Made by a program: the position numbers and the translations under genes. A model generated the notes under the pieces. The model saw only the letters and a program-made list of their open reading frames with translations, had not been told where the DNA came from and searched no databases. This document shows positions 23,726 to 49,984 of a stretch of 64,000 bases of DNA, piece after piece. The DNA lies in contig NW_024055461.1 in the NCBI RefSeq assembly GCF_902713615.1, forward strand, positions 1,287,877-1,351,876, in the 5' to 3' direction. This DNA is from Scyliorhinus canicula (taxonomy: Eukaryota). Position 1 is the first letter of the stretch, and each line of letters starts with the position of its first letter.

Positions 23726-25012
23726 ATGGAGAAACCGTGGAAATGTGCTGACTGTGGGAAGGGATTTAGAGCCCCATCTGTGCTGGAGATTCATTGCCGC
23801 AGTCACACTGGGCAGAGGCCATTCACCTGCTCTCAGTGTGGGAAGGAATTCACTCAGTTATCCAGTCTGTATGCACACCAGCGAGTTCACACTGGGGAAA
23901 AGCCATTCACCTGCTCCCAGTGTGGGAAGGAATTCACTCAGTTATCCAGTCTGCAGAGACACCAGCGAGTTCACACTGGGGAGAAGCCATTCACCTGCTC
24001 CCAGTGTGGGACGGGATTCAGTTCTTCATCCAACCTACGGAAACATCAGCGAGTTCACACGGGGGAGAGGCCATTCACCTGCTCCCTCTGTGAGAAGGGA
24101 TTCAGTGATTCATCCACCCTGCAGACACACCGGCGAATTCACACTGGGGAGAGGCCATTCATCTGCTCTCAATGTGGGAAGGGATTCATTAACTCGTCCA
24201 AACTTCGGAACCATCAGCGAGTTCACACTGGGGAGAGGCCGTTCACCTGCTCTCAGTGTGGGAAGGGATTCAATAACTCGTCCAACCTTCGGAACCATCA
24301 GCGAGTTCACACTGGGGAGAGGCCGTTCACCTGCTCTCAGTGTGGGAAGGGATTCAGTGATTTATCCACCATGAAGAGACATAAGCGAATTCACACTGGG
24401 GAGAGGCCATTCACCTGCTCTCAGTGTGGGAAAGGATTCAGTGATTTATCCACCCTGCGGAAACATCAGCGAATTCACACTGGGGAGAGGCCATTCATCT
24501 GCTCTCAGTGTGGGAATGGATTTACACATTTATCCAGTCTGCAGACACACCAGCGAATTCACACTGGGGAGAGGCCATTCACCTGCTCTCAGTGTGGGAA
24601 GAGATTCAATAACTCGTCCAACCTTCGGAACCATCAGCGAGTTCACACTGGGGAGAGGCCGTTCACCTGCTCTCAGTGTGGGAAGGGATTTGTTAGTTCA
24701 TCCACCATGAAGAGACATAAGCGAATTCACACTGGGGAGAGGCCATTCACCTGCTCTCAGTGTGGGAAAGGATTCAGTGATTTATCCACCCTGCGGAACC
24801 ATCAGCGAGTTCACACTGGGGAGAGGCCGTTCACCTGCTCTCAGTGTGGGAAGGGATTTGTTAGCTCATCCACCATGAAGAGACATAAGCGAATTCACAC
24901 TGGGGAGAGGCCATTCACCTGCTCTCAGTGTGGGAAGGGATTCAGTAATTCGTCCAACCTTCAGAAACACCGGCGAGTTCACACTGGAGAGAGGCAATTC
25001 ATCTGCTCTTAG
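23726..25012 (+). CDS. tandem C2H2 zinc-finger protein, 15 fingers, no effector domain; ends at a premature TAG in finger 16
   Basis: ATG of MEKPWKCADCGKGF, then 15 C-x2-C...H-x3-H units with TGE(R/K)PF linkers; CAG>TAG at FICS*. The leader exon acceptor lies near 23353. Confidence 0.85.
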   Translation: MEKPWKCADCGKGFRAPSVLEIHCRSHTGQRPFTCSQCGKEFTQLSSLYAHQRVHTGEKPFTCSQCGKEFTQLSSLQRHQRVHTGEKPFTCSQCGTGFSSSSNLRKHQRVHTGERPFTCSLCEKGFSDSSTLQTHRRIHTGERPFICSQCGKGFINSSKLRNHQRVHTGERPFTCSQCGKGFNNSSNLRNHQRVHTGERPFTCSQCGKGFSDLSTMKRHKRIHTGERPFTCSQCGKGFSDLSTLRKHQRIHTGERPFICSQCGNGFTHLSSLQTHQRIHTGERPFTCSQCGKRFNNSSNLRNHQRVHTGERPFTCSQCGKGFVSSSTMKRHKRIHTGERPFTCSQCGKGFSDLSTLRNHQRVHTGERPFTCSQCGKGFVSSSTMKRHKRIHTGERPFTCSQCGKGFSNSSNLQKHRRVHTGERQFICS

Positions 25013-25029
25013 TGTGGGAAGGGATTATA

Positions 25030-27395
25030 TAGAAACATGAAAAGGGAGAGCAGGAAGAGGCCATTTGGCCCTTTGCGCCTGATCTGCCATTCATTATGAT
25101 CATGGCTTATCATCCAACTCAATAGCTTAATCCCGCTTTCCCCTCCATATCCTTTGACCCCCTTCGCCTTCAGTGCGATATCTAACTGCTTCTTGCAAAC
25201 AAATAATGTATTGGCCTTAAAGTTTTCCTGTGGTAACAAATTCCACGGGCTCACCACTCTCTGGTTGAAGAAATTTCTCCTCATCTCTGTCTAAATGGTC
25301 TCCCCCGTATCCTCAGATTGCGACCTCTGGTTCTGTACACTCCCACCATCGGGAAAATCTTTCCTGCATCTACCTTGTTAAGTCCTGTTCGAATATTATA
25401 GGTTTCTATGAGATCCCCCTCATTCTTCTGAACTCCAGCGAATACAAACCTAACTGATTCAATCTCTCATACGTCAGTCCCACCATCCCAGGAATCAGTC
25501 TGGTAAACGCTCGCTGCACTCCCTCTAGAGCAAGAACATCCTTCCTCAGATAAGGAGACCAAAATTGCTCACAATATTCCAGGTATGGCCTCGCCACGGC
25601 CCTGTGTAATAATAGCAAGATATTCCTGCTCCTGTACTCGAATCCACTCGCAATGAAGGCTAGCATACCATTTGCCTTCTTTACCGCCTGCTGGAGCTGC
25701 ATGCTTACCTTCAGTGACTGGCGTACAAGGATACCCAGGTCTCATTGCACATTCCCCGCCTCTCCTAATCTATGGCCGTTCAGATAATAGTCTGCCTTCT
25801 CATTTTTAGTACCAATGTGGATAACCTCGCATTTCTCCAAATTATACTGCATCTGCCATTCATTTGCCCACTCACTCAACTTGTCCAAATCACTCTGAAG
25901 GATCTCTGCATCCTCCTCACAGCTCATCCTCCCAAGCAACTTGTGTGATCTGTAAATTTGGAGATATTGCATTTTGTTCCCTCATCTAAGTTGTTAATAT
26001 ATAAGTGGTGCAGCTGCCTCATGGTGCTGAGGATCATGGTTCAATCATGCCTGGGTCACTGTCTGTGTGCAGTCAAGTTCTCGATTTTGCGTGGGTCTCA
26101 CCCCCATAACCCCAAAGATGTGCAGTGGAGGGGAACTGGCCATGCTAAATTACCACTTATTTACAAAAATAGAATTGGGTACTTTAAATTTGAAAAGAAA
26201 AATCATTTATATATCTTGTGAATATCTGGGGCCCAGGCACTGATCCCAGCGGTACCCCACGAGCCACTGCCTGCCAATTTGAAAAAGATCCATTAATTCC
26301 TCCTCTTTGTTTCCTGTCTGCCAGTCAGTTTTTTTATCCATCTCAAGAGACGACCCCTAATCCCATGTGCTTTCATTTTACCCACTAATATCTTATGCAG
26401 GAATAAGTCGAAAGCTATCTGAAAGTCCAAATATACCACATCCACTGGCTCTCCCTCGTCAACTCGACCAGTTACACACTTGAAGAATTCCAGTAGATTT
26501 GTCAAGCATGATTTCCCCTTCATAAATCCATGCTGGCTCTGTCCGATCCTGCCACTGGTTTCGAAGTGCTTTGCTATAAAATCTTTGATAATGGATTCTA
26601 AAATTTGCCCCACTGCCGATGTCAGGCTTACTGGTCTATAATTTCCTGTTTTGTCTCGAGCTCCCTATTTAAATAGTGAGTTACATAAACCACCCTCCAA
26701 TGTGCAGGAATTGTTCCAGAGTCTATAGAATCCTGGAAGATGACCACCAATGCATCCATTATTTCTAGAGCCACTTCCTTAAGTACTTTGGGATACAGAT
26801 TATCAGGCCCTGGGGATTTATCAGCCTTCAATCCCATCAATTTCCCCAACACAATTTCTCGAATATTGATCTCCTTTAGTTCCTTCCTCTCACTAAATCC
26901 TGCGTTCCCCAACATTTCTAGCATCTAATTTGTGAAGCCAGAAGCAAAGTATGTATTTATTTGCTCACCCATTTCTTTGTCCCCTATTATACATTCCCCT
27001 GTTTCTGACTGAAAGGAACCTACATTTGTCTTCACCGATCTTTTTCTCTTCACATACCGACAGAAACTTATACAATCGGCCTAATTTCCTGTTTTGTGCC
27101 ATTCCCAACATCACCACTGCAGTTAGGGGGGTCTATATACACAACGCCCACTAATGTTTTTTGCCCCTTGGTGTTTCTCAGCTCTACCCATACAGATTCC
27201 ACATTGTTGGAGCTAATATCCTTCCTCACTATTGCATTAATTTCCTCTTTAACCAGCACTGCCACTCCATTGCCTTTTCCTTTTTGTCTGTCCTTCCTAA
27301 ATACTGAATATATTCAGTTCCCATCCCTGGTCATCCTGCAGCCATGTCTCCAGAATCCCGATTATCTCACACCCGTTTACATCTATTTACACAAT
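25030..27395 (-). mobile_element. CR1 LINE ORF2 (endonuclease-RT, internally deleted and frameshifted) inserted in the ZNF array; carries a SINE at about 26015-26200
   Basis: Minus-strand ORFs with VESVWVELRN, KADKSPGPD, SQHGFMKGKSCLTNLLEFF, YLDFQ.AFD, WQMQYNLEKC, RPYLEYC.QFWSPYL and RNFFNQRVV. Confidence 0.92.
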
Positions 27396-27428
27396 TCACT
27401 CGGTTATGCCGTCTGCAGTCACACCAGG

Positions 27429-28222
27429 GAGTTCACACTGGGGAGAGGCCGTTCACCTGCTCTCAGTGTGGGAAGGGATTCAATAACTCGTCCAACCTTC
27501 GGAACCATCAGCGAGTTCACACTGGGGAGAGGCCGTTCACCTGCTCTCAGTGTGGGAAGGGATTCAGTGATTTATCCACCATGAAGAGACATAAGCGAAT
27601 TCACACTGGGGAGAGGCCATTCACCTGCTCTCAGTGTGGGAAAGGATTCAGTGATTTATCCACCCTGCGGAAACATCAGCGAATTCACACTGGGGAGAGG
27701 CCATTCATCTGCTCTCAGTGTGGGAATGGATTTACACATTTATCCAGTCTGCAGACACACCAGCGAATTCACACTGGGGAGAGGCCATTCACCTGCTCTC
27801 AGTGTGGGAAGAGATTCAATAACTCGTCCAACCTTCGGAACCATCAGCGAGTTCACACTGGGGAGAGGCCGTTCACCTGCTCTCAGTGTGGGAAGGGATT
27901 TGTTAGTTCATCCACCATGAAGAGACATAAGCGAATTCACACTGGGGAGAGGCCATTCACCTGCTCTCAGTGTGGGAAAGGATTCAGTGATTTATCCACC
28001 CTGCGGAACCATCAGCGAGTTCACACTGGGGAGAGGCCGTTCACCTGCTCTCAGTGTGGGAAGGGATTTGTTAGCTCATCCACCATGAAGAGACATAAGC
28101 GAATTCACACTGGGGAGAGGCCATTCACCTGCTCTCAGTGTGGGAAGGGATTCAGTAATTCGTCCAACCTTCAGAAACACCGGCGAGTTCACACTGGAGA
28201 GAGGCAATTCATCTGCTCTTAG
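27429..28222 (+). pseudogene. headless duplicate of ZNF fingers 7-15
   Basis: Identical translation to the 3' part of the 23726-25012 ORF, with the same TAG. Confidence 0.85.
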
Positions 28223-28239
28223 TGTGGGAAGGGATTATA

Positions 28240-30605
28240 TAGAAACATGAAAAGGGAGAGCAGGAAGAGGCCATTTGGCCCTTTGCGCCTGATCTGCCAT
28301 TCATTATGATCATGGCTTATCATCCAACTCAATAGCTTAATCCCGCTTTCCCCTCCATATCCTTTGACCCCCTTCGCCTTCAGTGCGATATCTAACTGCT
28401 TCTTGCAAACAAATAATGTATTGGCCTTAAAGTTTTCCTGTGGTAACAAATTCCACGGGCTCACCACTCTCTGGTTGAAGAAATTTCTCCTCATCTCTGT
28501 CTAAATGGTCTCCCCCGTATCCTCAGATTGCGACCTCTGGTTCTGTACACTCCCACCATCGGGAAAATCTTTCCTGCATCTACCTTGTTAAGTCCTGTTC
28601 GAATATTATAGGTTTCTATGAGATCCCCCTCATTCTTCTGAACTCCAGCGAATACAAACCTAACTGATTCAATCTCTCATACGTCAGTCCCACCATCCCA
28701 GGAATCAGTCTGGTAAACGCTCGCTGCACTCCCTCTAGAGCAAGAACATCCTTCCTCAGATAAGGAGACCAAAATTGCTCACAATATTCCAGGTATGGCC
28801 TCGCCACGGCCCTGTGTAATAATAGCAAGATATTCCTGCTCCTGTACTCGAATCCACTCGCAATGAAGGCTAGCATACCATTTGCCTTCTTTACCGCCTG
28901 CTGGAGCTGCATGCTTACCTTCAGTGACTGGCGTACAAGGATACCCAGGTCTCATTGCACATTCCCCGCCTCTCCTAATCTATGGCCGTTCAGATAATAG
29001 TCTGCCTTCTCATTTTTAGTACCAATGTGGATAACCTCGCATTTCTCCAAATTATACTGCATCTGCCATTCATTTGCCCACTCACTCAACTTGTCCAAAT
29101 CACTCTGAAGGATCTCTGCATCCTCCTCACAGCTCATCCTCCCAAGCAACTTGTGTGATCTGTAAATTTGGAGATATTGCATTTTGTTCCCTCATCTAAG
29201 TTGTTAATATATAAGTGGTGCAGCTGCCTCATGGTGCTGAGGATCATGGTTCAATCATGCCTGGGTCACTGTCTGTGTGCAGTCAAGTTCTCGATTTTGC
29301 GTGGGTCTCACCCCCATAACCCCAAAGATGTGCAGTGGAGGGGAACTGGCCATGCTAAATTACCACTTATTTACAAAAATAGAATTGGGTACTTTAAATT
29401 TGAAAAGAAAAATCATTTATATATCTTGTGAATATCTGGGGCCCAGGCACTGATCCCAGCGGTACCCCACGAGCCACTGCCTGCCAATTTGAAAAAGATC
29501 CATTAATTCCTCCTCTTTGTTTCCTGTCTGCCAGTCAGTTTTTTTATCCATCTCAAGAGACGACCCCTAATCCCATGTGCTTTCATTTTACCCACTAATA
29601 TCTTATGCAGGAATAAGTCGAAAGCTATCTGAAAGTCCAAATATACCACATCCACTGGCTCTCCCTCGTCAACTCGACCAGTTACACACTTGAAGAATTC
29701 CAGTAGATTTGTCAAGCATGATTTCCCCTTCATAAATCCATGCTGGCTCTGTCCGATCCTGCCACTGGTTTCGAAGTGCTTTGCTATAAAATCTTTGATA
29801 ATGGATTCTAAAATTTGCCCCACTGCCGATGTCAGGCTTACTGGTCTATAATTTCCTGTTTTGTCTCGAGCTCCCTATTTAAATAGTGAGTTACATAAAC
29901 CACCCTCCAATGTGCAGGAATTGTTCCAGAGTCTATAGAATCCTGGAAGATGACCACCAATGCATCCATTATTTCTAGAGCCACTTCCTTAAGTACTTTG
30001 GGATACAGATTATCAGGCCCTGGGGATTTATCAGCCTTCAATCCCATCAATTTCCCCAACACAATTTCTCGAATATTGATCTCCTTAGTTCCTTCCTCTC
30101 ACTAAATCCTGCGTTCCCCAACATTTCTAGCATCTAATTTGTGAAGCCAGAAGCAAAGTATGTATTTATTTGCTCACCCATTTCTTTGTCCCCTATTATA
30201 CATTCCCCTGTTTCTGACTGAAAGGAACCTACATTTGTCTTCACCGATCTTTTTCTCTTCACATACCGACAGAAACTTATACAATCGGCCTAATTTCCTG
30301 TTTTGTGCCATTCCCAACATCACCACTGCAGTTAGGGGGGTCTATATACACAACGCCCACTAATGTTTTTTGCCCCTTGGTGTTTCTCAGCTCTACCCAT
30401 ACAGATTCCACATTGTTGGAGCTAATATCCTTCCTCACTATTGCATTAATTTCCTCTTTAACCAGCACTGCCACTCCATTGCCTTTTCCTTTTTGTCTGT
30501 CCTTCCTAAATACTGAATATATTCAGTTCCCATCCCTGGTCATCCTGCAGCCATGTCTCCAGAATCCCGATTATCTCACACCCGTTTACATCTATTTACA
30601 CAATT
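28240..30605 (-). mobile_element. second copy of the CR1 insertion (part of the tandem duplication)
   Basis: Same minus-strand ORFs at offset +3210. Confidence 0.9.
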
Positions 30606-31293: not shown

Positions 31294-33004
31294 TTCAGGT
31301 TAGAAGATATTTCATTACCATTTCTGTTTTGAAATCCCCCAAATCATGCCACATTGCCATAAAGATGGGCTATGGTGGTTACGTGGTTCTTTTGTTTAAT
31401 TTGTCTTGGTGCTTCTCACAGAAGAAAACTATCAGGGTATGAGGGGCATGTTGTCTGAGGTGCACTGGGAAACTACATTACATGGTATGGTGGGTGACAG
31501 GCAATCACTAATATTTATGGAATTATTACAGATTTACATGGGGATCGGTTCGCTCAGTTGACTGGATGGCTGGTTTGTGCTGAGTGACACGAACAGCACA
31601 GGTTAAATTCCCATAGCGGCTGAGGTTAGCCATGGTCTGTCAGTATTTGTGCTCCACATGACCCTCCACCCACCCCTCTATATCCCCCCCCTCTATACCC
31701 TCCTTCCCCCCCCCCCCCCCCCCCCCCCCACCATCAGCATCTCCCTCTATTCCTTTCTCTCTCATGTATGTATCTAGCTTTACGTTCAATGTATTAATGC
31801 TGTTCACCTCAACCACTGGCTGTGGGAGTGAGTTGCACATTCTCACCACTCGCTGGTAAAGAGGTTTCTGCTGAAATTCCTATTGGATTATTGAATTCCT
31901 TCATAATCTGAAAGACTTCCTCCAGGTCACCCATCAGTCTTCTCCTTTCCAGAAAAAAGCAGCCCCAGACTTTCCTGGGTGTTAAATGCTCTCAGTTCTG
32001 TATATTATGAATCTTTGTTGCACCTTATCCAGTGCCTCTATTTCCTTTATCGAAATGGAGATCACCAATGTTGACACTGCTCCCAGTGTAGTCTAACCCC
32101 GGTTCTAAACAAGCTGAACATTTCCTCCGTGCTTTTCAATTCTATCTCTCTAGAATGGAACCCTATATATAATTGCCCCACACTTTGGGAAAGATGTGAA
32201 GTTCTCAGAGACGGTGTCGAGAACATTTACGAGAATGGTACCAGAGATGAGGGACACCAGTTAGTTGGAGTGACTGGAGCAACTAAATTTCACTCCTGAG
32301 ATCACAGCATCTGGAGGGTGGGGAATGGGGCCATTCAGCCCTTTGGGAACGTGTCGGCTCCCTGTGGAGGAAGCCAGTCTGTCTATTGCCCCGTTCTATC
32401 CCCAAATCCCTGTGAGTTTATTTCTCTCAATGCCTGTCCAATTTCCTATTGAAATCATTCCATCATCTCTGCATCTCCCACCCTCATAGGCGATAGGTTC
32501 CAGGTTGTTACCACTCCCTTTACATGTACACAAGGCTGTTCGAGCACAGAGGAGTCTATTTGGCCCATTTTTCCTATGCCAGCACTTTGTATAGCGACCC
32601 ATTTAATCCCAGAGTCCGGCTATTTTGTTTTCTTTTTCAGAATGCATCAAATTACATTTTGGAAATTGCATTCCAATGAGATTCCAGCACCATTTATCGA
32701 CAGTGCATTCCAAATCACAAAAACTCGCTGTGTTTTACAACAAATAATTGTGCATATGGTGTGTGTGAATTTTCACAGAGTATTCAAAATGGTGTCAATG
32801 ACGTGGGTATTACACAAAATTAAGACTCAATCTTTATCAATGATTCTGGTGAGGACACCGAGTGTAATATATGCGGACAATTGGAATAAATGTACATTTC
32901 TATCAAACCTCTCGACCACTGAACCTCCTAAAGTGTTTTAAAGCCAATGGAGTACTTTTGAATTGAAACATATTCACTGTTGTAATGTAGGAAGCTGTAA
33001 GTAC

Positions 33005-33970
33005 TGTTCTGGAAAATACAGAATGTGTCATTTGAAACATAGAGGTCTGCCAATATCTGGTCTGGGAGAGTGCAGGGAAAGATCCCACAAGAGGTTGGTG
33101 GCAGCTGAAAAGAGCAGAAACTGTGGCCAGCTCTTCTGTCAAAAATGCAGTCAATTTCAGTCTGTCAGAATTGTTATTACAACCTGCAGCAGGAGAAAGG
33201 GAAAAAGAAAAAAACAGAGTTTGCATACATTTCTTTGTGCTGTTGAAATATTGTAATGGACTGCCCCTTTAAGCCCCGTAGTCCTTTCCCCATCGGAGGT
33301 CCCGATCTCCCGCCAAAAATCACTAAGCGCGGGCTTCCCTCGCTCCTCCCCCCACGTGCGAGGCAGCAGACATCGGGAGAAAAGCAGAACGCGAGGGAGC
33401 AGCAGCTGGAGAGGGCAGAACGGAGCTCAGAGGAAGGAGGACAGAAAACAGAGAACCAGCATCAGGAGAGAGAGAGAGAGAGAGAGAGAGAACTCGGTTA
33501 TGGGAAAGGCAAAGCAAACAGCTGAGTGTAAACGGTAATAGATTTAAAGAAGGCTAGGATTTAAAGGTAAAATGTTAAGTTTGGGTCTGAAGGTCCCCAA
33601 CCAACCAGACAACATCCAAAATCACTAATCTGTTTACCTTTCTGTATAAGAAAGTGTTTACAACTTATTAAAAAAAGTATGATAATAATAAAATAATTTA
33701 ACCTGAAAAAGTGGTTATTAGCTTACTTCACTTCCTTAATAACGCAGGACCCAGGACATCAATGCTATTAAAGGGTAAGTAGGTAAAATTCTTCGGTGAA
33801 GGTATGGGTTATACCGGGGGATAACTTGAAAGGAGAGTTTGACCTGAATAGCACCCACAGAAGCCTGTATCGGAGTCAGGGAGTGAGAATCCCTGTTCAC
33901 CATTTTAGAGTATTGGCCCTTTTTTGGTTTAGGGGGAATTCTAAGACAGAGTGGTGGATTTACAAAAACA
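33005..33970 (+). repeat. 5' LTR (966 bp)
   Basis: TGTTCTGGAAAATAC...GGATTTACAAAAACA. It matches 41122-42086 except about 7 substitutions plus GA-run and A-run length changes (counted by eye). Confidence 0.95.
33116..33201 (+). other. WDFY3: captured WDFY3-like FYVE-coding fragment in the LTR (also at 41233-41318)
   Basis: Reads RNCGQLFCQKCSQFQS and, after a frameshifting deletion at GTCTG, CQNCYYNLQQEKG. The WDFY3 C-terminus as I recall it is RNCGQLFCQKCSRFQSEIKRLKISSPVRVCQNCYYNLQHERG. Confidence 0.8.
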
Positions 33971-33988
33971 TGGCGAGCCAGCCAGGAG
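33971..33988 (+). promoter_or_regulatory. primer-binding site for tRNA-Arg(ACG)
   Basis: TGGCGAGCCAGCCAGGAG is the reverse complement of the vertebrate tRNA-Arg(ACG) 3' end CUCCUGGCUGGCUCG-CCA; it abuts the LTR. Confidence 0.9.
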
Positions 33989-34118
33989 GCCTAGAATATT
34001 AGAAGTTTCTAGGTAAATAGGGGCTAGAATATTAGAAGTTTCTAGTTCCCAAGAAACGGTTGGAATATTAGAAGTTTCTAACCGGCACAAAGGCTAGAAT
34101 ATTAGAAGTTTCTAGCCT
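33989..34118 (+). other. four tandem stem-loops with invariant loop TATTAGAAGT (candidate packaging or dimerisation signal)
   Basis: Stems GCCTAGAA/TTCTAGGT, GGGGCTAGAA/TTCTAGTTCC, CGGTTGGAA/TTCTAACCG and AGGCTAGAA/TTCTAGCCT. Confidence 0.8.
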
Positions 34119-34540
34119 GTGTGTGAGTCAAACTTTACCTGCCGAGTTTAGTTTGGAAAGTCATGTGTGATTGGCTTTTGTAAGGATATTCTGTGGATCG
34201 AGGGGACAGAAGCTCAGGTTGGGTGTGAAAATTAGTAGACTAGAAGATACTGGCCCTGAGAAAAGTCTGCAAGACATTTTGGTGACAGCACTAAAATTTT
34301 GCATCCATTACTGGTAAAAGGGGCTAAAGAATAAATCATCCTCAGGGTAAGGCAGATTGTGCGGACATTTTCTGGAAAATAGGAACGCTTATCTTCAGAA
34401 ACCAATAATCAATCGACCCTTAACTAAAGCAGGAAGATAGTGCCTTGGTCAGCCTTGGATAGGGCCCAGAAAGGGTACTTATCCTTAATTTCAGAGTGCA
34501 CCTGAAAGGGACAACCAGGAACAGAAAAAAAATCCGAAAA

Positions 34541-37500
34541 ATGGCAATTAGGGTAATTCTCATGCCCTGGGATACGGTCAAGAGAAATGTAGCAGTGAAA
34601 CAGGAATGGAAGAAATTAAAAGAGCAAAAGAAATCCTGGAAAAAAGATATGTATCCAGACGGAGATATCTCCTTCTTTGTTAGAGTGCCAAAAGCCCTGC
34701 AATATACAGATCCAGTAGGGATCCTTAAAGCACTTTGTAAGTTTGCATTTGAAAAGCAAACTGAATCACTAATCTTGTTCGGACACAGACAGAAGCATGC
34801 AGCTGCTCAAGTGGGCAAAGTGTGCTCCAAACTGATTAAAATCATTGACGAAGAAAACATGAAAGAAATAATACAGATCCCTAGTGAACACAAAAGTAAC
34901 TCTGAAGTGGCAAACAAATATATAAAACAACTGCAGAAAAATGAAACATTAGAAATGGAAAATGACGAGGAATCAGTCCTAGAATCAGATAGCCGAGAGA
35001 ATTCGGACCCCTTTGAAAATTTCCCAAAGGGATACAATTTTCAATACCCAGATCCAAGTCCGTTTCAGGAAGAAAATTGGCCACGGCAATCTGCCACATA
35101 TAAAAAAGGAGCTTTTATCGATTATTTCTTTGAAACACAAGAAAGTGAAGAGGAACAAAGCCTAGTTGGGATTATGGCGCCTCCTGCGCTGGGACAGGAA
35201 GAATCATCATCCTCATCAGAGAATGAGGAAATAGTAAAACCAAGGAGAAGAATAGGGAATAGAAAAAATTCTAAACCATTAGAAATAGGGGATTATAGTG
35301 ATTACTGGAAACAACAACAACCTTCCACTTATCGACCAATAAATAAGGATTTACCGTATTATATGTATAATCCAGAAGCAAAAATGGTACACCATAGAGA
35401 TCAGGAAGGATGGGAAAGAGAGGTTACATCTAGGGGACTTAAAATAGGAGAAATATTAGGAGGAAGTCAACAAATTGATTCTACGAAATTACTGGAATTA
35501 CCAAACGTTACCCCCAAAGCTAAAATTTGGCAAATGAGCAAAGGGTATGACAGTTTCGGAAGAGCCATGAGTAGGGTAAGGAACAGCACAGAAACACAAG
35601 GCCAGATAACAGCAGCATTAAGACCACAAGAAAGGATACAGAATCGTCCAAGACCCCGAATAACTGCTCCTACTCCTATGGATAGGGCAAGTTATGCTCC
35701 ACGAGATAGCCAAGTACCAATTGCAATGTTTGAAGAATATATAGAACCGGTGGAAGATTTTGTACAACATGGTACCCCCTATTTTGAGGAAGAACCAGTA
35801 CAACGACAGATACATTTCTCAGAATATAGGACACCTTTAAGAACACCATGCCCCAGAAGTGAGAAAGTAGTTCAGTTATTTACACCAGGTCCAGAGGAAG
35901 GACAGGGAGGCATGGTACCGTATAAAATAGTAGCAGCAGTAATGAAGACAGCAGGCCCAAAGAAACATGGGGAGAGTAGAATTGAGTATTCACAGAGGTT
36001 AAAACAGTTAGCGAAGAAAATGGGGGCATCAGGAGAATCCACCAAATTGATTGATTCAGTGGGAGAAATAGTTACAGGCGAAGTCTCAGATTTAATAAAT
36101 GAGTTAGATTTGGGAAATGAGAGAGCTAACTTAATGAAAGAGATGACAGAGGCAGCATATGCAGGGGAACACCTCACAACATATGTCGACCGAATATATG
36201 AGGTTAATAAGGAAGAGGGGGCCGATGTAGTCAGATTCCTGAGGGAATTAGGACCCAAGATTCCAGGAGGAAATAGCCTCTCAACAATACTGTTAACGAC
36301 CTCTAGAAGAGAAATAGGAAGAGAACTGGTGAAATTTGATTTGGCAGGCAAAGCATTTAAGGATAAACACACAAAAGGGGAACAAAAAAGAGTAGCAGCT
36401 GCCCAAAATAATGTTTCAACACAAAATGCTCAGATTAGACCACCAAACCGACAGATACCTGACAAATCGGAACACAATCTAGCCCAACCAGCAATGCCAC
36501 AACATGGGTATAATCTGCGGTCACAAGGGCCACCTCCACCACAAAATCTAGATTACTTACCAAGGGAACAATTCCTAGCCCTCAGTCGGGAGGAAAGAGA
36601 CAGATTCATTGAGGATAGGAGAAGAAGAGCAGCTGGTCAGGGGAAAGATTTAATAAAAATAGATACTAGAAAAATAAGGATATTAAAACCAATTGATAAC
36701 ATGGAGGAAATAAGGAAACAGAAAGAGAAAAGTATTTTAAATGAAGCTTGGAAGAAGATGGAAGAAGTATTAATGGGAGCAAACCTAGCGATAGGTAAGA
36801 ATGACACAGGTTTAATTAGCAAGCGGTTCCAACACACAATTCACGGGGGACAACACAGACCTCAAAAACAGTATCCTTTGACTAGAGGAGCTAAGAGCGA
36901 GCTGGAGATAATAATCAAGGAATTGGAGCAGCAGGGGATTATTCAAGGGGTCACATATGCCTCAACAAATAGTCCACTTCAAGTAGTAAGAAAACCAGAT
37001 GGTACATTTAGGATGGTAACAAATTACAAAGCTTTAAATAAAGTCACAAAGAAGGACAAGAGATATTTAATAAATCCACAAGCTACCTTAGAGCAAGTCG
37101 CGGGAAAAACTTACTTAACTAGTATAGATTTGGCGAATGGATTCTGGAGTGTTCCATTAGACCCAGACAGCAGGGAGAAAACAGCATTCACCTTCGGAAC
37201 TAAGCATTATGTATATTGTAGACTGCCACAGGGATATGTTAATTCTCCGAATCACTTTCAGGCAATAATCAGGGAACTGATTAAAGATGATTTGGCTTTA
37301 GTATATATCGATGATATATTAATTGGAGATGACGATCAGGACAAACATGTGGAAAGAGTGGCCAGGATAATTAAGACACTTAGTGAAGCAGGCTTTAAAA
37401 TAGGGCTAAAGAAATGTCAAATTGGGAGAAGCGAAGTCAACTATTTGGGTTATTCAGTATCGAAGGAAGGTAGAGAGGCCAGTATTGAAATGAGGAAGAA

Positions 37501-39448
37501 GGTAGCTGAAATTACTGCGCCTGTTTCGAAAAAAGGGGTTCAAAAAATAATGGGAATATTGGGATATCTAAGGCCAGTAGTGAAAGACTTTAGTCTTTAT
37601 GCTAAAGCCATTTATCAAACATTGCAAGGGGATTTTATTTGGACCAGCGAGGCCCAGAGAGGGTTAGATCAGTTAAAGATAGCAATTGCGATATCGGGAC
37701 CATTAGTTGGGAGACAAGAAGAGGATGATTTAAGCATTAAATTAGACATATATAAAAATGGATATGGTATGGTGCTTGCTAATCTTAGCAATCAGACACC
37801 TATCAAACATCTGACAGGAAACTGGTCGAGAGCTGAACAAAAGTTTTCAAACATCGAGAAATGTCTAGCAGCTATAACAAAGAGAATAGCAGAGATAGAA
37901 AACTTGTCGGGTGGTAAGAAAATTTATGTCACAGCTGAGTTTTTGGAATTAAAGGAGCTAACCAGGAGACAGATTTGCCAGCAAGGCGCGAATACAGCTC
38001 GATGGGAAAGATGGGAAACCATTCTTCTAAACCCTGACTTAATGTTTATTCATAACATTAAAAAGGGACAGAAACTTGATGAACCAGTTAGTAAAACGGA
38101 GTTGGTGAATGCTTGGGTATTATATACTGATGGTAATAAAGTCAAGAAGGACGAAGAACAAGCCAGATGGGCATTCATTTTAAAAAATTCAGGAAAAATA
38201 GTAGTGGAGGAACAGGGAATAATCATTGGATCAGCTCAGACAGCTGAGGTAGAGGGAGTATTGCAAGGGTTAAAGGAGTGTCAGCAGCGAAAGCTGCAGG
38301 AAGTTACCGTTGTAACCGACAGCTTTTTCGTGCAGCAAGGATTGGAGAAAGATTTGGAGTTTTGGAAACTAAACGGTTGGACGAACGGTAGAAATAAACT
38401 ACTGGAACAGAAAGAACAGTGGGAAGAGATAGATAAAATTTTAGCCGATATGGAGATCCAGACAATTCATCAAAAAGCACACACAAAAGGAACTGGGGAA
38501 CTGTGTAAGGGGAATCAGGAAGTGGATGAATTAGCCAGACTTAGGACAATAATCTTGGGGACTCTTGGGAACACAGCAGCCGACCTTCAAATGATAATTA
38601 AGCAAATACATGAAGCCACAGGACATGGGGGTCATGTTGTAGTCGCAAGGGAGTTGAAAAAGTTGGGAATTAAAATAGCCTATTGGAGACAACATTTAAC
38701 TGCAGTAAGGAGAAAATGTGAGAGATGTATGGCCTGTGGAGGACAGAGAGGGAATAAAACATATGGGAGCATAAAAACTGAGAAACCAATGCAGGAATGG
38801 TCATTAGATTATGCAGGACCACTTTTTCCCAGAAGCAGCAACGGTAATTTGTATTTTTTAGTCAAAGCTGATAGCTGCACGGGAGAAATTGACCTTAGAG
38901 CAACCAGCAAAGCAAATGGAGCCACGACCAAAAGGGTATTGGCAGAAATGATGACCTCCAGAGGTAGACCAGAATCGATCCGAATGGACAACGCGCCGCA
39001 CTTTAGAAACAATACTGTTATTAACTTTTGTGCTGACAGAGGAATAACAATCAATTGGGCCGTGAAATATGCACCTGAGAGTAATGGAATGGCTGAGAGG
39101 TCTGTAAGAAAAGTAAAGGATTGGATCATAAAGAATCAGAATAATAAAGGCTGGGATAAAGACATTGAAAGAATAGTATTTGATCTTAATAGTAATCTTG
39201 GAACCTCTGTCTCCCAGGGACAAGGGGACCCAAGTGAATCTGGGAATTATCAAGTAGGAGACGAAGTTTGGGTGAAGCTACCAACTAAGACTGTGGGGAA
39301 AATCATTCGTGAGACTGTAAAATGTAAAGACAAGATTGTTCAGATTCTGGGTACACATACAATTGAATTAGAGAAGCATGGTGTCTGGAGCAAAAGGAAT
39401 TGTGTCACAATTGAAACACACGACCCAGTGAGCATCAGAGGAGTTTGA
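34541..39448 (+). CDS. Gag-Pol polyprotein, 1635 aa from the first ATG: Gag, RT, tether, RNase H, integrase; no recognisable protease
   Basis: GYNLR (36506), RPQKQYPL (36857), DLANGFW, RLPQGYVNSP, YIDD (37304), WSRAEQKFSNIEK tether, YTDG (38123)...AQTAE...TDS...KGNQEVD RNase H, H-x4-H...CERC, and D...D-35-E integrase (WSLDYAGP, RMDN, NGMAER). Confidence 0.93.
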   Translation: MAIRVILMPWDTVKRNVAVKQEWKKLKEQKKSWKKDMYPDGDISFFVRVPKALQYTDPVGILKALCKFAFEKQTESLILFGHRQKHAAAQVGKVCSKLIKIIDEENMKEIIQIPSEHKSNSEVANKYIKQLQKNETLEMENDEESVLESDSRENSDPFENFPKGYNFQYPDPSPFQEENWPRQSATYKKGAFIDYFFETQESEEEQSLVGIMAPPALGQEESSSSSENEEIVKPRRRIGNRKNSKPLEIGDYSDYWKQQQPSTYRPINKDLPYYMYNPEAKMVHHRDQEGWEREVTSRGLKIGEILGGSQQIDSTKLLELPNVTPKAKIWQMSKGYDSFGRAMSRVRNSTETQGQITAALRPQERIQNRPRPRITAPTPMDRASYAPRDSQVPIAMFEEYIEPVEDFVQHGTPYFEEEPVQRQIHFSEYRTPLRTPCPRSEKVVQLFTPGPEEGQGGMVPYKIVAAVMKTAGPKKHGESRIEYSQRLKQLAKKMGASGESTKLIDSVGEIVTGEVSDLINELDLGNERANLMKEMTEAAYAGEHLTTYVDRIYEVNKEEGADVVRFLRELGPKIPGGNSLSTILLTTSRREIGRELVKFDLAGKAFKDKHTKGEQKRVAAAQNNVSTQNAQIRPPNRQIPDKSEHNLAQPAMPQHGYNLRSQGPPPPQNLDYLPREQFLALSREERDRFIEDRRRRAAGQGKDLIKIDTRKIRILKPIDNMEEIRKQKEKSILNEAWKKMEEVLMGANLAIGKNDTGLISKRFQHTIHGGQHRPQKQYPLTRGAKSELEIIIKELEQQGIIQGVTYASTNSPLQVVRKPDGTFRMVTNYKALNKVTKKDKRYLINPQATLEQVAGKTYLTSIDLANGFWSVPLDPDSREKTAFTFGTKHYVYCRLPQGYVNSPNHFQAIIRELIKDDLALVYIDDILIGDDDQDKHVERVARIIKTLSEAGFKIGLKKCQIGRSEVNYLGYSVSKEGREASIEMRKKVAEITAPVSKKGVQKIMGILGYLRPVVKDFSLYAKAIYQTLQGDFIWTSEAQRGLDQLKIAIAISGPLVGRQEEDDLSIKLDIYKNGYGMVLANLSNQTPIKHLTGNWSRAEQKFSNIEKCLAAITKRIAEIENLSGGKKIYVTAEFLELKELTRRQICQQGANTARWERWETILLNPDLMFIHNIKKGQKLDEPVSKTELVNAWVLYTDGNKVKKDEEQARWAFILKNSGKIVVEEQGIIIGSAQTAEVEGVLQGLKECQQRKLQEVTVVTDSFFVQQGLEKDLEFWKLNGWTNGRNKLLEQKEQWEEIDKILADMEIQTIHQKAHTKGTGELCKGNQEVDELARLRTIILGTLGNTAADLQMIIKQIHEATGHGGHVVVARELKKLGIKIAYWRQHLTAVRRKCERCMACGGQRGNKTYGSIKTEKPMQEWSLDYAGPLFPRSSNGNLYFLVKADSCTGEIDLRATSKANGATTKRVLAEMMTSRGRPESIRMDNAPHFRNNTVINFCADRGITINWAVKYAPESNGMAERSVRKVKDWIIKNQNNKGWDKDIERIVFDLNSNLGTSVSQGQGDPSESGNYQVGDEVWVKLPTKTVGKIIRETVKCKDKIVQILGTHTIELEKHGVWSKRNCVTIETHDPVSIRGV

Positions 39449-39476
39449 GATTCTTCGAATCTCACTCAGGGGTGCA

Positions 39477-39632
39477 ATGACAGAAGGAGGCTTAACAGGC
39501 CTTAATGGTATGATGTACATCAAGGATATGGAAAATAAACCAGTTCAAAAAGAAATGGTGGCAAAAGAAATCCGGAAGTCCTGGAGAGGGCATTTCTGGG
39601 TTAACCAAATGAAAACAGAAAGTACAAATTAA
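39477..39632 (+). CDS. putative small accessory ORF A (51 aa)
   Basis: MTEGGLTGLNGMMYIKDMENKPVQKE...; support is limited to an open frame just after pol. Confidence 0.25.
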   Translation: MTEGGLTGLNGMMYIKDMENKPVQKEMVAKEIRKSWRGHFWVNQMKTESTN

Positions 39633-39677
39633 AGAATAGGGCCCTCTCCACCCTTGATCTGTTCATTTGATTTTCAG

Positions 39678-39806
39678 ATGGAAAAAATAAATAACGAACC
39701 AGTTCACAAGAAGGAAGAGAACTACACTCCAGAGAGGAATCTTTTAGACAGGATTGGGGGGGAAACTAATGATGCAATTGGCTACATATTTGAGGGAATT
39801 AAATGA
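39678..39806 (+). CDS. putative small accessory ORF or exon B (42 aa) behind a strong splice acceptor
   Basis: CCCTCTCCACCCTTGATCTGTTCATTTGATTTTCAG|ATG, then MEKINNEPVHKKE... Confidence 0.3.
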   Translation: MEKINNEPVHKKEENYTPERNLLDRIGGETNDAIGYIFEGIK

Positions 39807-40642
39807 CAGAACCCCGAGGAAAACTTTACGGGGTAGAAACAAATCAAAATATCAAATTATAACTGGACAGTGAAACCTCCGGTCAGACATCTCTAACTGG
39901 ACATTAGCTGATGGGTGATCTGCGGTCTCCATGGAGTATGTACTACGTGGTGGAATTATTAAGGGTCTCGGCAGATAGCAGCGACTGACGAGGAACCCCA
40001 ATATGATAAATGACAATAGTTTAAGAATTTTAGTAGCTTGATACTACGGCGGGAAAATTGTTACCAATGCAGCAAAACAATATTGCATTGAAGAGCTGTA
40101 ATCGTTATTATAAAAAATAAAAATTAAAAAAAAATATTAAATTTTCATGTAAATTGATAGGGACTGTTATATATATATGATAAGGGGGGTATGTGTGTCG
40201 TTAAAGAACTTGATCCGCATTTCTAAACTCTGTGAATGTTTTAATAGAGGGGTAGTTTAGTGTGTTTTCTTGATTTAACTATATAGTACATTACAAATAA
40301 TATTGATGTTGTTTATATGCCATATTTAGTATGTAATAATTATTGTTCCCAAAGCCAAGAAGGAATGTTTCGATATTGATATTAAATTTTGTTAACAGTT
40401 GAAAATATGTAAAGTTGTAACACACAGTCTATTTGTGTGGTTAGGTAATGAATAATGTGTTAAGATAAGATTTTTTTTTTACTATGTATTTAACAATAGG
40501 GAGAATTTGTTTGAAAAAAAAGACGGTTCAATGTGGTTTTGCAAATGCTGTAATGAAAAATATACACTTTGTCAGAAAGATATTCTCTCATGTAAACCAG
40601 AGGTTGGCAGACTTACATGATTCACGACAATGTTAGACATTA

Positions 40643-41152
40643 ATGGGGAAGTTAGGAATACAAGCAGGATCAATTGAACATTTTAAATTAATGAAACAAA
40701 GGGATCAGTGGGTGGTACATGATATCACAATTACCCCATTCCAATCAGAAATGGAAAACTATTTGGACGACGGAAAAATGGGGCACGTAACAACCAGTGA
40801 TGGACAAAAGATCTGTTTGGTTACTGATGAACTGAGTTGTGTGCTGGTTCTAAGGGACATGAGGAAGCTTATACGGTGCTGCTATCCCAAGGAAGTAAAA
40901 TGCTTTGGAGGTAGTGGAACACACGGAAAGCTAATGTGTTACCTTCCTGAGCGGCTATGGCTATGGTTCACGGTAATTGGACTGGAACGGAAAACAAGAC
41001 TCTTATTGACACTGGTCTGTGATATGCATACAAATGACAAAGATCAGGGATGTATGTTAGTACAATTGGATGGGGGGACAATAAACCAAATTATAGTAAT
41101 GTTTCAAATGTCAAGACGGGGTGTTCTGGAAAATACAGAATGTGTCATTTGA
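40643..41152 (+). CDS. putative accessory ORF C (169 aa, Cys-containing, unknown function)
   Basis: Open frame running across the PPT into U3; no homology recognised and no Env hallmarks. Confidence 0.4.
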   Translation: MGKLGIQAGSIEHFKLMKQRDQWVVHDITITPFQSEMENYLDDGKMGHVTTSDGQKICLVTDELSCVLVLRDMRKLIRCCYPKEVKCFGGSGTHGKLMCYLPERLWLWFTVIGLERKTRLLLTLVCDMHTNDKDQGCMLVQLDGGTINQIIVMFQMSRRGVLENTECVI

Positions 41153-41373
41153 AACATAGAGGTCTGCCAATATCTGGTCTGGGAGAGTGCAGGGAAAGAT
41201 CCCACAAGAGGTTGGTGGCAGCTGAAAAGAGCAGAAACTGTGGCCAGCTCTTCTGTCAAAAATGCAGTCAATTTCAGTCTGTCAGAATTGTTATTACAAC
41301 CTGCAGCAGGAGAAAGGGAAAAAGAAAAAAACAGAGTTTGCATACATTTCTTTGTGCTGTTGAAATATTGTAA
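41050..41373 (+). CDS. putative U3-overlapping ORF D (107 aa) with the WDFY3-derived peptide in frame
   Basis: Starts before the PPT and reads ...AEKSRNCGQLFCQKCSQFQSVR...; position analogous to bel2/nef-type genes. Confidence 0.35.
   Translation: MYVSTIGWGDNKPNYSNVSNVKTGCSGKYRMCHLKHRGLPISGLGECRERSHKRLVAAEKSRNCGQLFCQKCSQFQSVRIVITTCSRRKGKRKKQSLHTFLCAVEIL
41113..41121 (+). promoter_or_regulatory. polypurine tract
   Basis: AAGACGGGG immediately before the TG of the 3' LTR. Confidence 0.7.
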
Positions 41374-42086
41374 TGGACTGCCCCTTTAAGCCCCGTAGTC
41401 CTTTCCCCATCGGAGGTCCCGATCTCCCGCCAAAAATCACTAAGCGCGGGCTTCCCTCGCTCCTCCCCCCACGTGCGAGGCAGCAGACATCGGGAGAAAA
41501 GCAGAACGCGAGGGAGCAGCAGCTGGAGAGGTCAGAACGGAGCTCAGAGGAAGGAGGACAGAAAACAGAGAACCAGCATCAGGAGAGAAGAGGAGGAGAG
41601 AGAGAGAACTCGGTTATGGGAAAGGCAAAGCAAACAGCTGAGTGTAAACGGTAATAGATTTAAAGAAGGCTAGGATTTAAAGGTAAAATGTTAAGTTTGG
41701 GTCTGAAGGTCCCCAACCAACCAGACAACATCCAAAATCACTAATCTGTTTACCTTTCTGTAGAGAAAGTGTTTACAACTTATAAAAAAAAAGTATGATA
41801 ATAATAAAATAATTTAACCTGAAAAAGTGGTTATTAGCTTACTTCACTTCCTTAATAACGCAGGACCCAGGACATCAATGCTATTAAGGGGTAAGTAGGT
41901 AAAATTCTTCGGTGAAGGTATGGGTTATACCGGGGGATAACTTGAAAGGAGAGTTTGACCTGAATAGCACCCACAGAAGCCTGTATGGGAGTCAGGGAGT
42001 GAGAATCCCTGTTCACCATTTTAGAATATTGGCCCTTTTTTGGTATAGGGGGAATTCTAAGACAGAGTGGTGGATTTACAAAAACA
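41122..42086 (+). repeat. 3' LTR (965 bp)
   Basis: TGTTCTGG...TACAAAAACA followed by the GTAC TSD. Confidence 0.95.
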
Positions 42087-45000
42087 GTACGTATGTGTAA
42101 TTACATTTAGTTTTGAAATTGTTATTTTCATAGTGTATTCCCTGTCATTAGTAACATGGTCAAGGAAGCCCTTTTATACCTCGAACATGCAGCTTCCTGC
42201 AGCCATTTCACCTTCTGTACCTTTTCTGTATTAACCACATTGATTTCACAGCAAAAAGCAATAATTAAATTTATGATTATTCAGTAGTGAACATAGATTA
42301 TCATACATGAATTGGTGTGTGAGGTAGTTATCTTGTAAAGACTAGTTCTTTATTTTAAAAAGTAACACTTCCAACCAAAATGTTTCCAGAAACTGCAGAG
42401 CTATCAGAATTTGTTTGAAAAAATAAATTACTTTATAATTTTGAGAAGTTACAAGACATCATATTCTGCCAAGACTATGTGGGCTGGGCAGAGGTGTAAT
42501 GGTATTGTTACTGGGCTAGTAATCCAGAGACCCAGGTTAATGCTCTAGGGATCTGGGATCGAATCTGCCTATGACAGTTTTTGAAATTGAATAAAAGTCT
42601 CAAATTCAAAGTCTAATGTTGACATTGTTGATCGTTGTAAAAACCCGTCTGGTTCACTAATGTCGTTTATGAAATCTGCTCTCCTTTTGTGGCCTGTCCT
42701 GCACGTGACTCCAGATCCACAGCAATGTTGTGGTTGATTTGTAAGTCTCCTTAAATAGCCTCACAAGACATGCAGTTCAAGGGCATTGGAATGAGCAGTA
42801 AATGCTGGTCCAGCCAGTGACGCCCACCTCCCATTAATGAATACTTTTTAAGAAGGTTTATTGTTCAATCTGAAGACTAGTAAGAAACTCTCTTTGATTG
42901 GATTTGATTAATTGTCACGTGTATCAAGGTACAGTGAAAAATATTGTTCTACATTTCCAGACAGATTGCTCCATACATGAAAAAACATAGGACATACAAT
43001 AAACATACAATGTAAATACATAGACACAGACAGCGGGTAAAGCGTATGGATTATAGTACTACTCAGAAAAGAACCAGTGTATCTTGTATTAACCAAATGT
43101 ATTAATTAGTTTGTAACATGATTAAATAAGTAGTGATCCTTAATTGAGTGACAATTAATGAAACTTTTTTTTTATTCATTGGGCATTGGCGTTGCAGGCT
43201 GTGCCAGCATTTATCACCCATTCTTATCGATTCCAGGCTTGGGTCACTGTCTGTGCGGATTCTGCACTTTCTCCCCATGTATGCGTCCCCACGTAGACAT
43301 GGGGAGAAGGTGTAATCTCCACACCGACAGCCACCCAAGGTTAAAATTGAACCTGAGTCCCTGGCACTGTGAGACAACAGTGGTAACCACTGTGCCACGC
43401 TAACAGTTGACTCTGGTGGGATATGAGCCCACAACCTTTGAATCCCTTACTTGCGATTAAGTAGAAGTCCAACACACTATCCATTGTGCTACAGAGTCAT
43501 ACATATCCTTTAATCCCTTTAGCCCCAAGAGCTGTATCAAACCCCTTCTTCAAATTGTACACTGTATTGGCCTCCACGACTTTCTGTGGTAATGAATTCC
43601 ACAGGCTCGTCACTCTCTCTAGGTGAAAAAATTTCTCCTCACCTCAGTCTTAAAAGTTTTACTCCATGTCCTCAAGCTATGACCCCCTAGTTCTGGACTT
43701 CCCACCATTGGGAACATTCTTTATGAATCTACTCTGTCCACTCCTGTTAGAATTTTATACGTTTCTTTGAGATCTTCTCATTAAAAAAGAGATGGAGAAG
43801 CAGAATTAGGCCATTCAGCCCATCGCGTTTGCTCTGCCATTCGATCATGGCTGATAAGTTTCTCGTCCCCATTATCCTGCCTTCTCCCCATAACACCTGA
43901 GCCTCTTATTCAAGAACCAATATATCTCTGTCTTAAAAAGACTGACGGGCATGGCCTGGTGCCATGTGGCCATCAATTAATTTCCTTTCCCCCAAGAGAA
44001 ATCAAGGACTTGACACTGTGTGTTTGAGACAAAGCTGATTTATTTCACAAACAACAAGATATTAAACACTCGCCCAGCTCAGTTACAGGGAATCGAAATA
44101 AACCCCAATTGTCAGATTGAAGATGGTTCAGTTCTGGGTGTGATTATCAGTGGCAGTAACAGCAGAATCAACACTTTTCAGATGAACAGAGGGTAAATAT
44201 AAATTAGTTTGACAGTTCAGGAATCATCAGTGGCATCTTATGATGTGGAGAAATTAGCTCAACAATTCTATGAACTAAAATTTAGTCTGGCCTGGTGTCA
44301 CCAAGCTGAAATCCAGTCTTTCTCTGACACATTATTCTTAATGACATAGCTGACAGGTTAAGAGTGAAAAAGTCAACTGTTTAGCAGTACGGGGAAGAGG
44401 CAGGTTTGTAGATGTTCTACAGTGTTACAAACGGGCTCGTTGGATCTTATTCTGTCCCATCTTACATTCAGCTGACAGTAAAATGACTAAAATACTGCAA
44501 CATACAGGCATTTGGGGACAATGGTGAGATTGCTGCTCAGATTAGTTAAAGTCTCCATATTGTAAAATAGATCTAGAAGGACTGGAGAAGATGCAGGAAA
44601 AGATATTTGAATTATGCCTGAACTGGCAGGTTACACCCAGTAAGAAAGATTGGACAGGGCATAACATTTTCTCTTGAAAAGGGAATGAAGGATGACCTGA
44701 TCCTGTAAGACTATGAACAGGTTTGATATGATAGACAAGTGGAAGATGTTTCCACTGAATAAGAATAAATATGAGTTAGTGATTGATTAATCTAATGTGC
44801 AGTTCAGAGGGAGATCACTCACACACTTCACATGTGCAAAGGAATTTCCTCAGTTTTCCCACTGGTTAACACTCCAACTTTAAAAGCCCAGACAATTTGA
44901 TCCAATTGCAGCACATTGTTATGGACGAGGGGCAGTTTAACTGTTCTGTCCAGGAAGACAAAAATCACTGTTCACCTGAACCTGCTCAGACCCCAACCCG

Positions 45001-49391: not shown

Positions 49392-49984
49392 CTGCAGTGA
49401 TTGATTTTGCTGTTCCTCACATTCAGGACTGAGCCATGTTCATTTGGGTCTCTTTCTGCTGATAACAAACTCCAGCCCATTTACAGGGGCTAATATTCTG
49501 GCTGAAAGTCAAATAAATTAGATTTGTGTTAAACGCGCAGTGTTGCAACTTTTTAATATCTCTGACACAAGTCAGTCCCTTTTGAAGTTCTCTCGCTCTG
49601 CCCTGTCTCTTCCATCCTCACATCCAACAAGAAGTGTGAGGAGCTTGTGGAGCTTCTTTGTGACTGAGATTGAGTCAATCCGATCAGCTGCCTCTGCTGC
49701 TTCCCTCCCTTCCACAAGCCCACCGGACCAAACTGTCTCTAAATTTCATCCTTTCCCGAGCCCTGAACCCACATCTTTCTCTAGTTTCTCTAGTTTCACC
49801 CCCTCCTCAATAAAACAAACCCTTGACCCTGCCAACCTTCAAATTACTGCCCCATCTTCAACCTTCCTCTCCTCTCCAAACTCTTTGAACATGTTGTCAC
49901 CTCCCAAATCCTTGCCCATCTTTCCCAGAACTCCCATGTTTGAATCCCTTCAATCAGGTCTCTGCCCTGTCACAGTGAAATACA

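Follow-up and report, generated by a model that had tools for sequence, protein, structure and literature searches.

How a fragment of a host gene comes to lie within the long terminal repeats (LTRs) of an endogenous retrovirus, and whether it serves any purpose there, is the question raised by a provirus in Scyliorhinus canicula (small-spotted catshark). The provirus lies in a stretch of 64,000 nucleotides (contig NW_024055461.1, positions 1,287,877 to 1,351,876), referred to here as the window. An initial annotation of these letters had proposed that the LTRs carry a captured piece of the host gene WDFY3, taken from mRNA into the U3 region and copied with every insertion. Here, we trace the source and junctions of this piece, its distribution among related LTRs, and the roles that it might have.

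A defective foamy-like provirus

The foamy-like provirus occupies positions 33005-42086 on the plus strand, with an LTR at both ends and the 4-nt target-site duplication GTAC to its left (33001-33004) and right (42087-42090). The 5' LTR, delimited by self-comparison, spans 966 nt (33005-33970) and has the ends TG...CA; the 3' LTR is located at 41122-42086. The two LTRs are 98.8% alike, differing by 10 substitutions and 3 single-base gaps, and form the sole long repeat in a self-comparison of positions 32000-43000. The 10 substitutions give an insertion age of ~10 million years at the rate of 0.5e-9 found in an extract of PMC10699275, or ~24 million years at the rate of 2.2e-10 in an extract of PMC4422223; both ages are rough upper values because several of the LTR differences fall in simple repeats.

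The primer-binding site (33971-33988, plus strand) differs in type from the common family type at the other 5' LTR junctions listed. We take the site here to be of the tRNA-Arg(ACG) type and the others to be of the tRNA-Lys type. Directly past the primer site, a repeat of ~22 nt is present in three to four copies (33994-34115). According to the available text of PMC5210030, most fish foamy-like ERVs use a tRNA-Lys primer.

The gag-pol ORF (34541-39448, plus strand) is 1,635 aa long and includes a reverse transcriptase (RT), a tether RNase H, an RNase H and an integrase. Its RT-RNase H region finds foamy-virus Pol as the best solved-structure match (E 1e-82), compared to 1e-39 for Ty3 and 9e-30 for MLV. 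By this structure-chain match, Pol is closest to the foamy viruses. The copy also has traits that the available text of PMC5210030 gives for fish foamy-like ERVs: a GGGTG motif at the border of polypurine tract and LTR (41113-41123, plus strand), a 4-nt duplication, a YIDD motif, and a Gag without a Cys-His box. The QYP(L/I)N motif given in the same text reads QYPLT here. Membership in the Lokiretrovirus or snakehead-like groups was considered and rejected, the foamy-virus Pol match and the foamy-like motifs favouring a foamy-like assignment.

This provirus is a defective copy. The protease motif is absent from it and present in 6 of 7 close relatives, and no env-sized ORF follows gag-pol, the longest frame between pol and ORF C being below 70 codons. 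ORF C (40643-41152, plus strand, 169 aa) belongs to no known family. ORF D (41050-41373, plus strand, 107 aa) runs into the 3' LTR and carries RNCGQLFCQKCSQFQS in frame. The stretch under study was found in 20 of the 24 sequencing runs listed, which come from one organism and whose RNA status is a guess, and no RNA that contains it is on record; contigs of four runs cover the element, and neither observation was used as evidence.

C2H2 zinc-finger arrays flank the provirus at 23600-25100, 27300-28400 and 48500-49400 (15, 9 and 6 fingers counted), and 27300-28300 is a duplicate of part of 24200-25100. At 53350-54250, a G-rich tandem repeat of 35-37 nt runs into telomere-type TTAGGG repeats.

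A piece of spliced WDFY3 mRNA in U3

A host WDFY3 piece of 150 nt is found in U3 of both LTRs, at 33114-33263 and 41231-41380, in the sense orientation with respect to the mRNA. Its core stretch matches at 33116-33201 and 41233-41318, two matches where none were expected from 100 shuffles. The gene of origin named in the initial annotation is confirmed: the LTR matches 1 of the 29 FYVE loci of its own genome (L044; 31/31 nt, E 5e-10), and proteins named WDFY3 share 88% identity with the product of the matched exon.

Read along the plus strand, the piece is a mosaic. The viral 5' part of U3 (33005-33117) is ~85% shared with a sister family, family B, and this likeness ends at GCAG (33114-33117). 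The penultimate WDFY3 exon contributes its last 31 nt (33114-33144; host G000:C3:173215776-173215806), which match at 31/31 positions and run to the splice donor. They are joined to the first 20 nt of the last exon (33145-33164, 18/20), which end in the GTCTG of a 40-nt deletion. Thus, 33114-33164 matches at 49/51 positions across the last WDFY3 exon junction, with the 3,737-nt intron absent and the register kept, which supports the proposed spliced mRNA template. Past the deletion, the end of the FYVE coding region (33160-33201, 41/42) is in a different frame from the first half; the deletion, put at about 40 nt beforehand, is exactly 40 nt, sits at the shared 5-nt GTCTG and shifts the frame. 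A second deletion of ~116 nt after 33201 takes out the WDFY3 stop codon, and it is followed by a piece of the WDFY3 3' UTR (33206-33263), which matches at 48/60 positions in the window's subfamily. A sequence of 117 nt that is absent from the LTR was found once in the genome, within the WDFY3 gene (1/1 candidate). In the subfamily A-long, the UTR piece is ~10 nt longer and matches the host at 60/68 positions; A-long is the form closest to the host. The extent first assigned to the fragment, 33116-33201, therefore holds as its core, while the fragment starts 2 nt earlier, and the second deletion and ~58 nt of 3' UTR, into which the homology was suspected to extend, had been missed.

The 5' junction lies inside an exon, at the 4-nt GCAG microhomology where the likeness to family B stops. 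When 200,000 random switch points were drawn, at least 4 nt were shared in 1.7% and at least 5 nt in 0.5%. The 3' junction is not clean: ~18 nt for which no source was found precede the GC-rich block that closes the variable part of U3 (33262-33349, plus strand).

The junction 20-mer of the piece occurs at 273 places on both strands (control 0), and A2, a variant that has lost another 21 nt, occurs at 43 places. In all, WDFY3-type LTRs stand at no fewer than 316 places, in line with a fragment copied with each insertion; a looser first count had given 619 candidate places.

The WDFY3 piece was probably captured from spliced mRNA into U3 by a switch of RT, as the initial annotation proposed, and has probably since spread as a passenger. 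RT would have left the viral RNA for a co-packaged host mRNA and then returned, at short shared sequences. Because U3 is copied into both LTRs in each round, a single capture would enter every later family-A provirus and solo LTR. Intron loss would also be expected if the sequence had entered as DNA, either as a LINE-made processed pseudogene landing in an LTR or by pick-up from a retrocopy. Such an entry is extremely improbable: the insert has no poly-A tract and no target duplication of its own, viral sequence was replaced and not interrupted, no WDFY3 retrocopy was found in the animal's own genome, and the same pattern is seen three times in one slot of U3.

LTR families and an exchangeable slot

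Family B shares LTR nt 1-113 and 533-952 with family A and has its own 730-nt middle instead of the intervening part. The WDFY3 match is present in 0 of 29 family-B LTRs; the 30th B locus contains a nested family-A LTR. An insertion of a family-A LTR into a family-B LTR is seen at L006 / L109 (G000:C11:88492465-88494071). The 730-nt middle of family B (L114:715-1360) has a 70-nt internal repeat and no long frame, and may be either the ancestral viral U3 or the product of further captures. Among 27 3' ends read from a search with ORF C, 13 were B-type, 4 WDFY3-type and 8 family C, with 1 truncated and 1 mis-oriented.

Family C shares LTR nt 1-78 and the GC-rich block, which is absent from family B, with family A, and has other fillings between them. 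Three different fillings are found in family C, as is an almost empty slot in which only 104 nt extend from the LTR start to the GC block (L199, L276). A survey by the GC motif gave 63 loci from 192 matches, some loci being repeated: 36 with WDFY3, 3 with SMC1B, 23 of the short C-type and 1 deleted. No fourth insert type was seen among these 63 loci. The U3 stretch from ~nt 80-113 to the GC block tolerates replacement, and this one slot has held sequence from three host RNAs (WDFY3, an RGS8-like gene and SMC1B), all in the sense orientation and all shortened by deletions between short repeats, probably after capture.

No source was found in the animal's own genome for the family-B middle, for family C nt 79-126 or for the GC block; multi-copy LTRs there mask a single host match. 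The GC-rich block may be a captured promoter; at 33290-33360 it contains what we take to be an E2F-like site and an E-box-like site. In an R/U5 tree of 57 copies, B and A2 are separate and the A-short, A-long, C-short and SMC1B types are mixed, and the order of the captures is therefore not given by the tree.

Captures from an RGS gene and from SMC1B

The C-long LTR contains ~330 nt matching an RGS-domain gene on C4, on the sense strand and with 97.6% identity over 333 nt. The match (L202:708-1035; host G000:C4:100712117-100712448) is a piece of 3' UTR that starts ~220 nt past the stop of the gene, whose best match is RGS8, and ends in a poly-C tract. The RGS sequence occurs at 8 LTR-type places and 1 host place.

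A further filling is derived from SMC1B, a meiosis-specific gene, which would fit a capture in germ cells. The piece (L186:2122-2457, G000:C1:52218520-52218865; host G000:C20:56233961-56235965) is found at 25 LTR-type places, 24 full and 1 partial, and comprises three C20 exons with the introns absent; the protein of the source gene is named SMC1B-like. It begins with the last 11 nt of exon X+2, continues with exon X from its first base, then X+1, and ends with the last base of X+2. Each junction was recovered in 13 of the 14 copies read; the motif missed the remaining one. The actual exon X-1 has a different end sequence, 43 kb upstream. Together, the three exons make up 411 nt, which is a whole number of codons, and an 87-nt deletion has left a unit of 324 nt in the LTR. 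Taking exactly one unit out of the SMC1B form yields the common C-short form. At the SMC1B entry point, the RGS-type LTR and the RGS gene share CCAGC and lack the next six bases. These six bases therefore came with SMC1B, and a chance homology of 12 nt is not needed.

Inverted repeats bracketing exons drive back-splicing. The intron before exon X holds an inverted copy (86%) of 56233856-56234807, which reaches the intron after X+2; this inverted duplicate, in the upstream intron at G000:C20:56236267-56237053 (L233), contains part of two SMC1B exons and flanking intron. The template of the SMC1B piece was probably a circular RNA. It is possible that a linear template was used and that the second switch hit an exon start by chance, or that a folded linear RNA was copied, a caution raised in the available text of PMC4897178 for a mouse case. 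A family-B solo LTR is also present, in antisense, in an SMC1B intron ~6 kb past the captured exons (G000:C20:56226343-56227753, L235).

A cluster of A-to-G differences

In A-long, the WDFY3 UTR piece differs from the host at 8 of 68 nt, and all eight are a host A replaced by G in the LTR, with A or T as the 5' neighbour in 8/8; this direction is read from the host and LTR pair. Each of the eight sites carries G in 29-30 of 30 copies, and the chance of 8/8 A-to-G from composition is 3e-5 to 4e-4. Across its 24 A positions, the WDFY3 coding block shows 0 A-to-G differences (Fisher p 0.005), and it has 3 of the G-to-A kind. Directly upstream, 7 of the 12 differences between the viral part and family B are A-to-G; both R/U5 and the ORF C region are balanced.

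The RGS8-like and SMC1B captures differ from their host genes at 5/326 nt (2 A-to-G) and 2/309 nt (none), respectively. With so few differences, host drift is an unlikely cause of the cluster, if the captures are of similar age. Going by the pattern of substitutions, the cluster is likely to reflect A-to-I (ADAR) editing of RNA, and A-to-G clusters occur in avian retroviral U3. Counting against editing, no duplex partner for the edited UTR was found in 70 kb of the WDFY3 locus; moreover, of the eight sites in the window's own subfamily, only 3 carry G, 2 carry C, 1 keeps the host A and 2 are deleted.

Possible functions of the insert

Three roles had been suggested for the fragment: a zinc-binding accessory peptide, a source of small RNAs matching WDFY3, and neutral hitch-hiking. 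Of these, hitch-hiking fits best.

As had been noted, the first half of the fragment stays in frame in ORF D, which could make ORF D a real accessory protein with a cysteine cluster from the FYVE finger. Two observations would suit such a protein. The ATG frame from 41050 is open in 20 of 24 scored family-A 3' ends (30 loci) and yields 107 aa in 8, and the A2 deletions of 21 and 6 nt are both in frame. Moreover, the ORF that starts at the LTR's own ATG reaches the same stop without interruption in 48 of 60 A-short records (of these records, 15 repeat one locus) and in 13 of 20 A2 copies. The protein itself shows little of the finger, with 4 of the 8 FYVE cysteines in frame, the basic patch RRHHC out of frame, and a FYVE (PF01363) score of 11.6 bits, below the cut-off of 27.8. 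The A2 deletions remove two FYVE cysteines, and A2 is nevertheless found at its 43 places without the middle of the fragment. In A-long, the frame stops after 55-98 codons, most often 67, and in family B it is closed by a stop. Neither ORF C nor ORF D gave a usable family or atlas match.

The variants point the same way. In the WDFY3 block, 72/16 non-synonymous/synonymous sites bear 3/1 shared variants; upstream, 71/20 sites bear 6/1. Both shared and rare variants follow the site numbers, all three frames behaving alike (76 distinct copies). By this test, in which the counts are small, no coding selection is seen in ORF D. ORF C has a dN/dS of 0.8-1.9 against 8 sister copies, showing no purifying selection and hence providing no positive control. 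No GT..AG splice joint was present among the 15 joints listed for four runs, a weak point that concerns contigs only. Taken together, a functional ORF D protein is highly improbable, and the zinc-binding peptide finds no support.

The fragment could instead tie the virus to its host through small RNAs: antisense piRNAs or siRNAs directed at the LTR would cleave the mRNA of WDFY3, an essential gene, as well, so that silencing would be blunted or WDFY3 tuned. The identity to the mRNA, 93-97% over blocks of 42-51 nt, is enough for piRNA pairing, and hundreds of copies are present on both strands. Against this, the captured region gives no folding signal for a hairpin or pri-miRNA (z +0.85 and -0.62), and the piece is in the sense orientation in viral RNA, both of which also speak against the fragment as a small-RNA source. 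In addition, the host-like part makes up only ~150 of the 966 LTR nt, leaving the remainder as a free target. No Rfam match was found in three loci. We regard a small-RNA link as very unlikely.

A third option is that the insert was kept as a cis-acting U3 sequence, through factor sites, spacing or RNA stability, that raises germ-line output. U3 nt 1-197, a stretch that takes in the WDFY3 coding block, diverges between subfamilies by only 0.8-5%, compared to 12-18% for the UTR block, 9-23% for the GC block and 6-11% for R/U5; 30 of the copies in this sample were picked by their likeness to the WDFY3 block. This low divergence could be due to selection or recombination. When 30 copies were instead chosen solely by the GC motif, variation per site in the WDFY3 block (0.53%) was close to that of its neighbours (0.61-0.95%). 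WDFY3-type LTRs also outnumber the others (316 or more places, against 25 for the SMC1B type and 8 for the RGS type), and Cassandra elements, in the partial account available, retain 5S rDNA in their LTRs for its promoter. However, family C works with three fillings and an almost empty slot, and A2 has amplified without 21 nt of the block. A cis-acting role is thus unlikely, and capture followed by apparently neutral spread is preferred.

A broader and rather doubtful reading is that the U3 cassette samples germ-line RNAs, both linear and circular, that selection sorts the samples, and that WDFY3 rose to hundreds of copies through increased output or through silencing RNAs that hit an essential host gene. 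If this were true, the LTRs would preserve a dated record of the host RNAs that were packaged, including a back-splice junction and A-to-I edits fixed in DNA.

Relation to known systems

Host RNA is usually captured by retroelements between the LTRs, at the cost of viral genes. In U3, a capture takes no gene away and enters every LTR; a single slip would thus have spread WDFY3 sequence to more than 300 sites of the genome. The three captures in one slot form a natural series of how captures start, shrink and spread, and in the SMC1B case a likely circular-RNA capture can be seen at both ends, which predicts a circular RNA that can be tested. These LTRs will also confuse the mapping of short reads, small RNAs and circular RNAs for WDFY3, SMC1B and the RGS gene in the catshark. 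What makes these LTRs of interest is the reused U3 slot, together with a probable capture of circular RNA and probable traces of editing.

ERV-Spuma.0-Sca (PMC10699275) comes from the same host and, in the text available, has a foamy-like Pol like that of the present element. A 9,220-letter sequence in Table S4 of that paper, seen without its row label, begins with a family C-short LTR. The main text has no instance of 'captur', two of its supplement files contain neither WDFY3 nor the WDFY3-junction string, and U3 variants are not described in these parts. Within the published literature searched on shark ERVs, foamy capture and cellular mRNA in U3, subscription papers and Repbase notes lying outside the search, the captures are not described. 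The mechanism, LTR-mediated retroposition, and the ERV lineage are known; repeated capture within U3 was not found in print.

The WDFY3 capture is a variant of LTR-mediated retroposition, or retroviral transduction, because it lies in U3 and not between the LTRs. As in the cases described in the available text of PMC5131818, a partial spliced mRNA was copied, the fusions show microsimilarity, marks of LINE activity are absent, and further rounds of copying followed. There, the retrocopy replaces internal ORFs between the LTRs, whereas here it is inside U3 of both LTRs, so that the copy is doubled in each provirus and left in solo LTRs, and the slot has been used three times. Captures of other host genes are also known: crocodilian ERVs have taken up KIT-ligand and nectin3 (PMC4299795) and amphibian ERVs OGFr (bioRxiv 2021.11.23.469661), as far as the portions available describe them. 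These resemble the present case in that intronless host sequence was amplified in an ERV lineage. They are long ORFs within pol or env or between the two, and the crocodilian ones are under purifying selection (PMC4299795), whereas the WDFY3 piece is short and frameshifted and shows no purifying selection.

The closest parallel to the SMC1B piece is the mouse circRFWD2 pseudogenes, which in the available text of PMC4897178 share the non-colinear exon junction, the association with an ERV (MMERVK10C-int) and dozens of copies, and for which that text calls the mechanism unknown. In the SMC1B case, one can see both switch points, a complete turn of the presumed circle with 11 nt more, and the inverted repeat in the host gene; the copy itself lies in U3. 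Finally, Cassandra TRIMs, as portrayed in the part of their description available, carry 5S rDNA in both LTRs, as the shark elements carry host RNA. Cassandra retains the 5S promoter over the long term, whereas the shark filling, derived from mRNA or probably circular RNA, turns over and decays.
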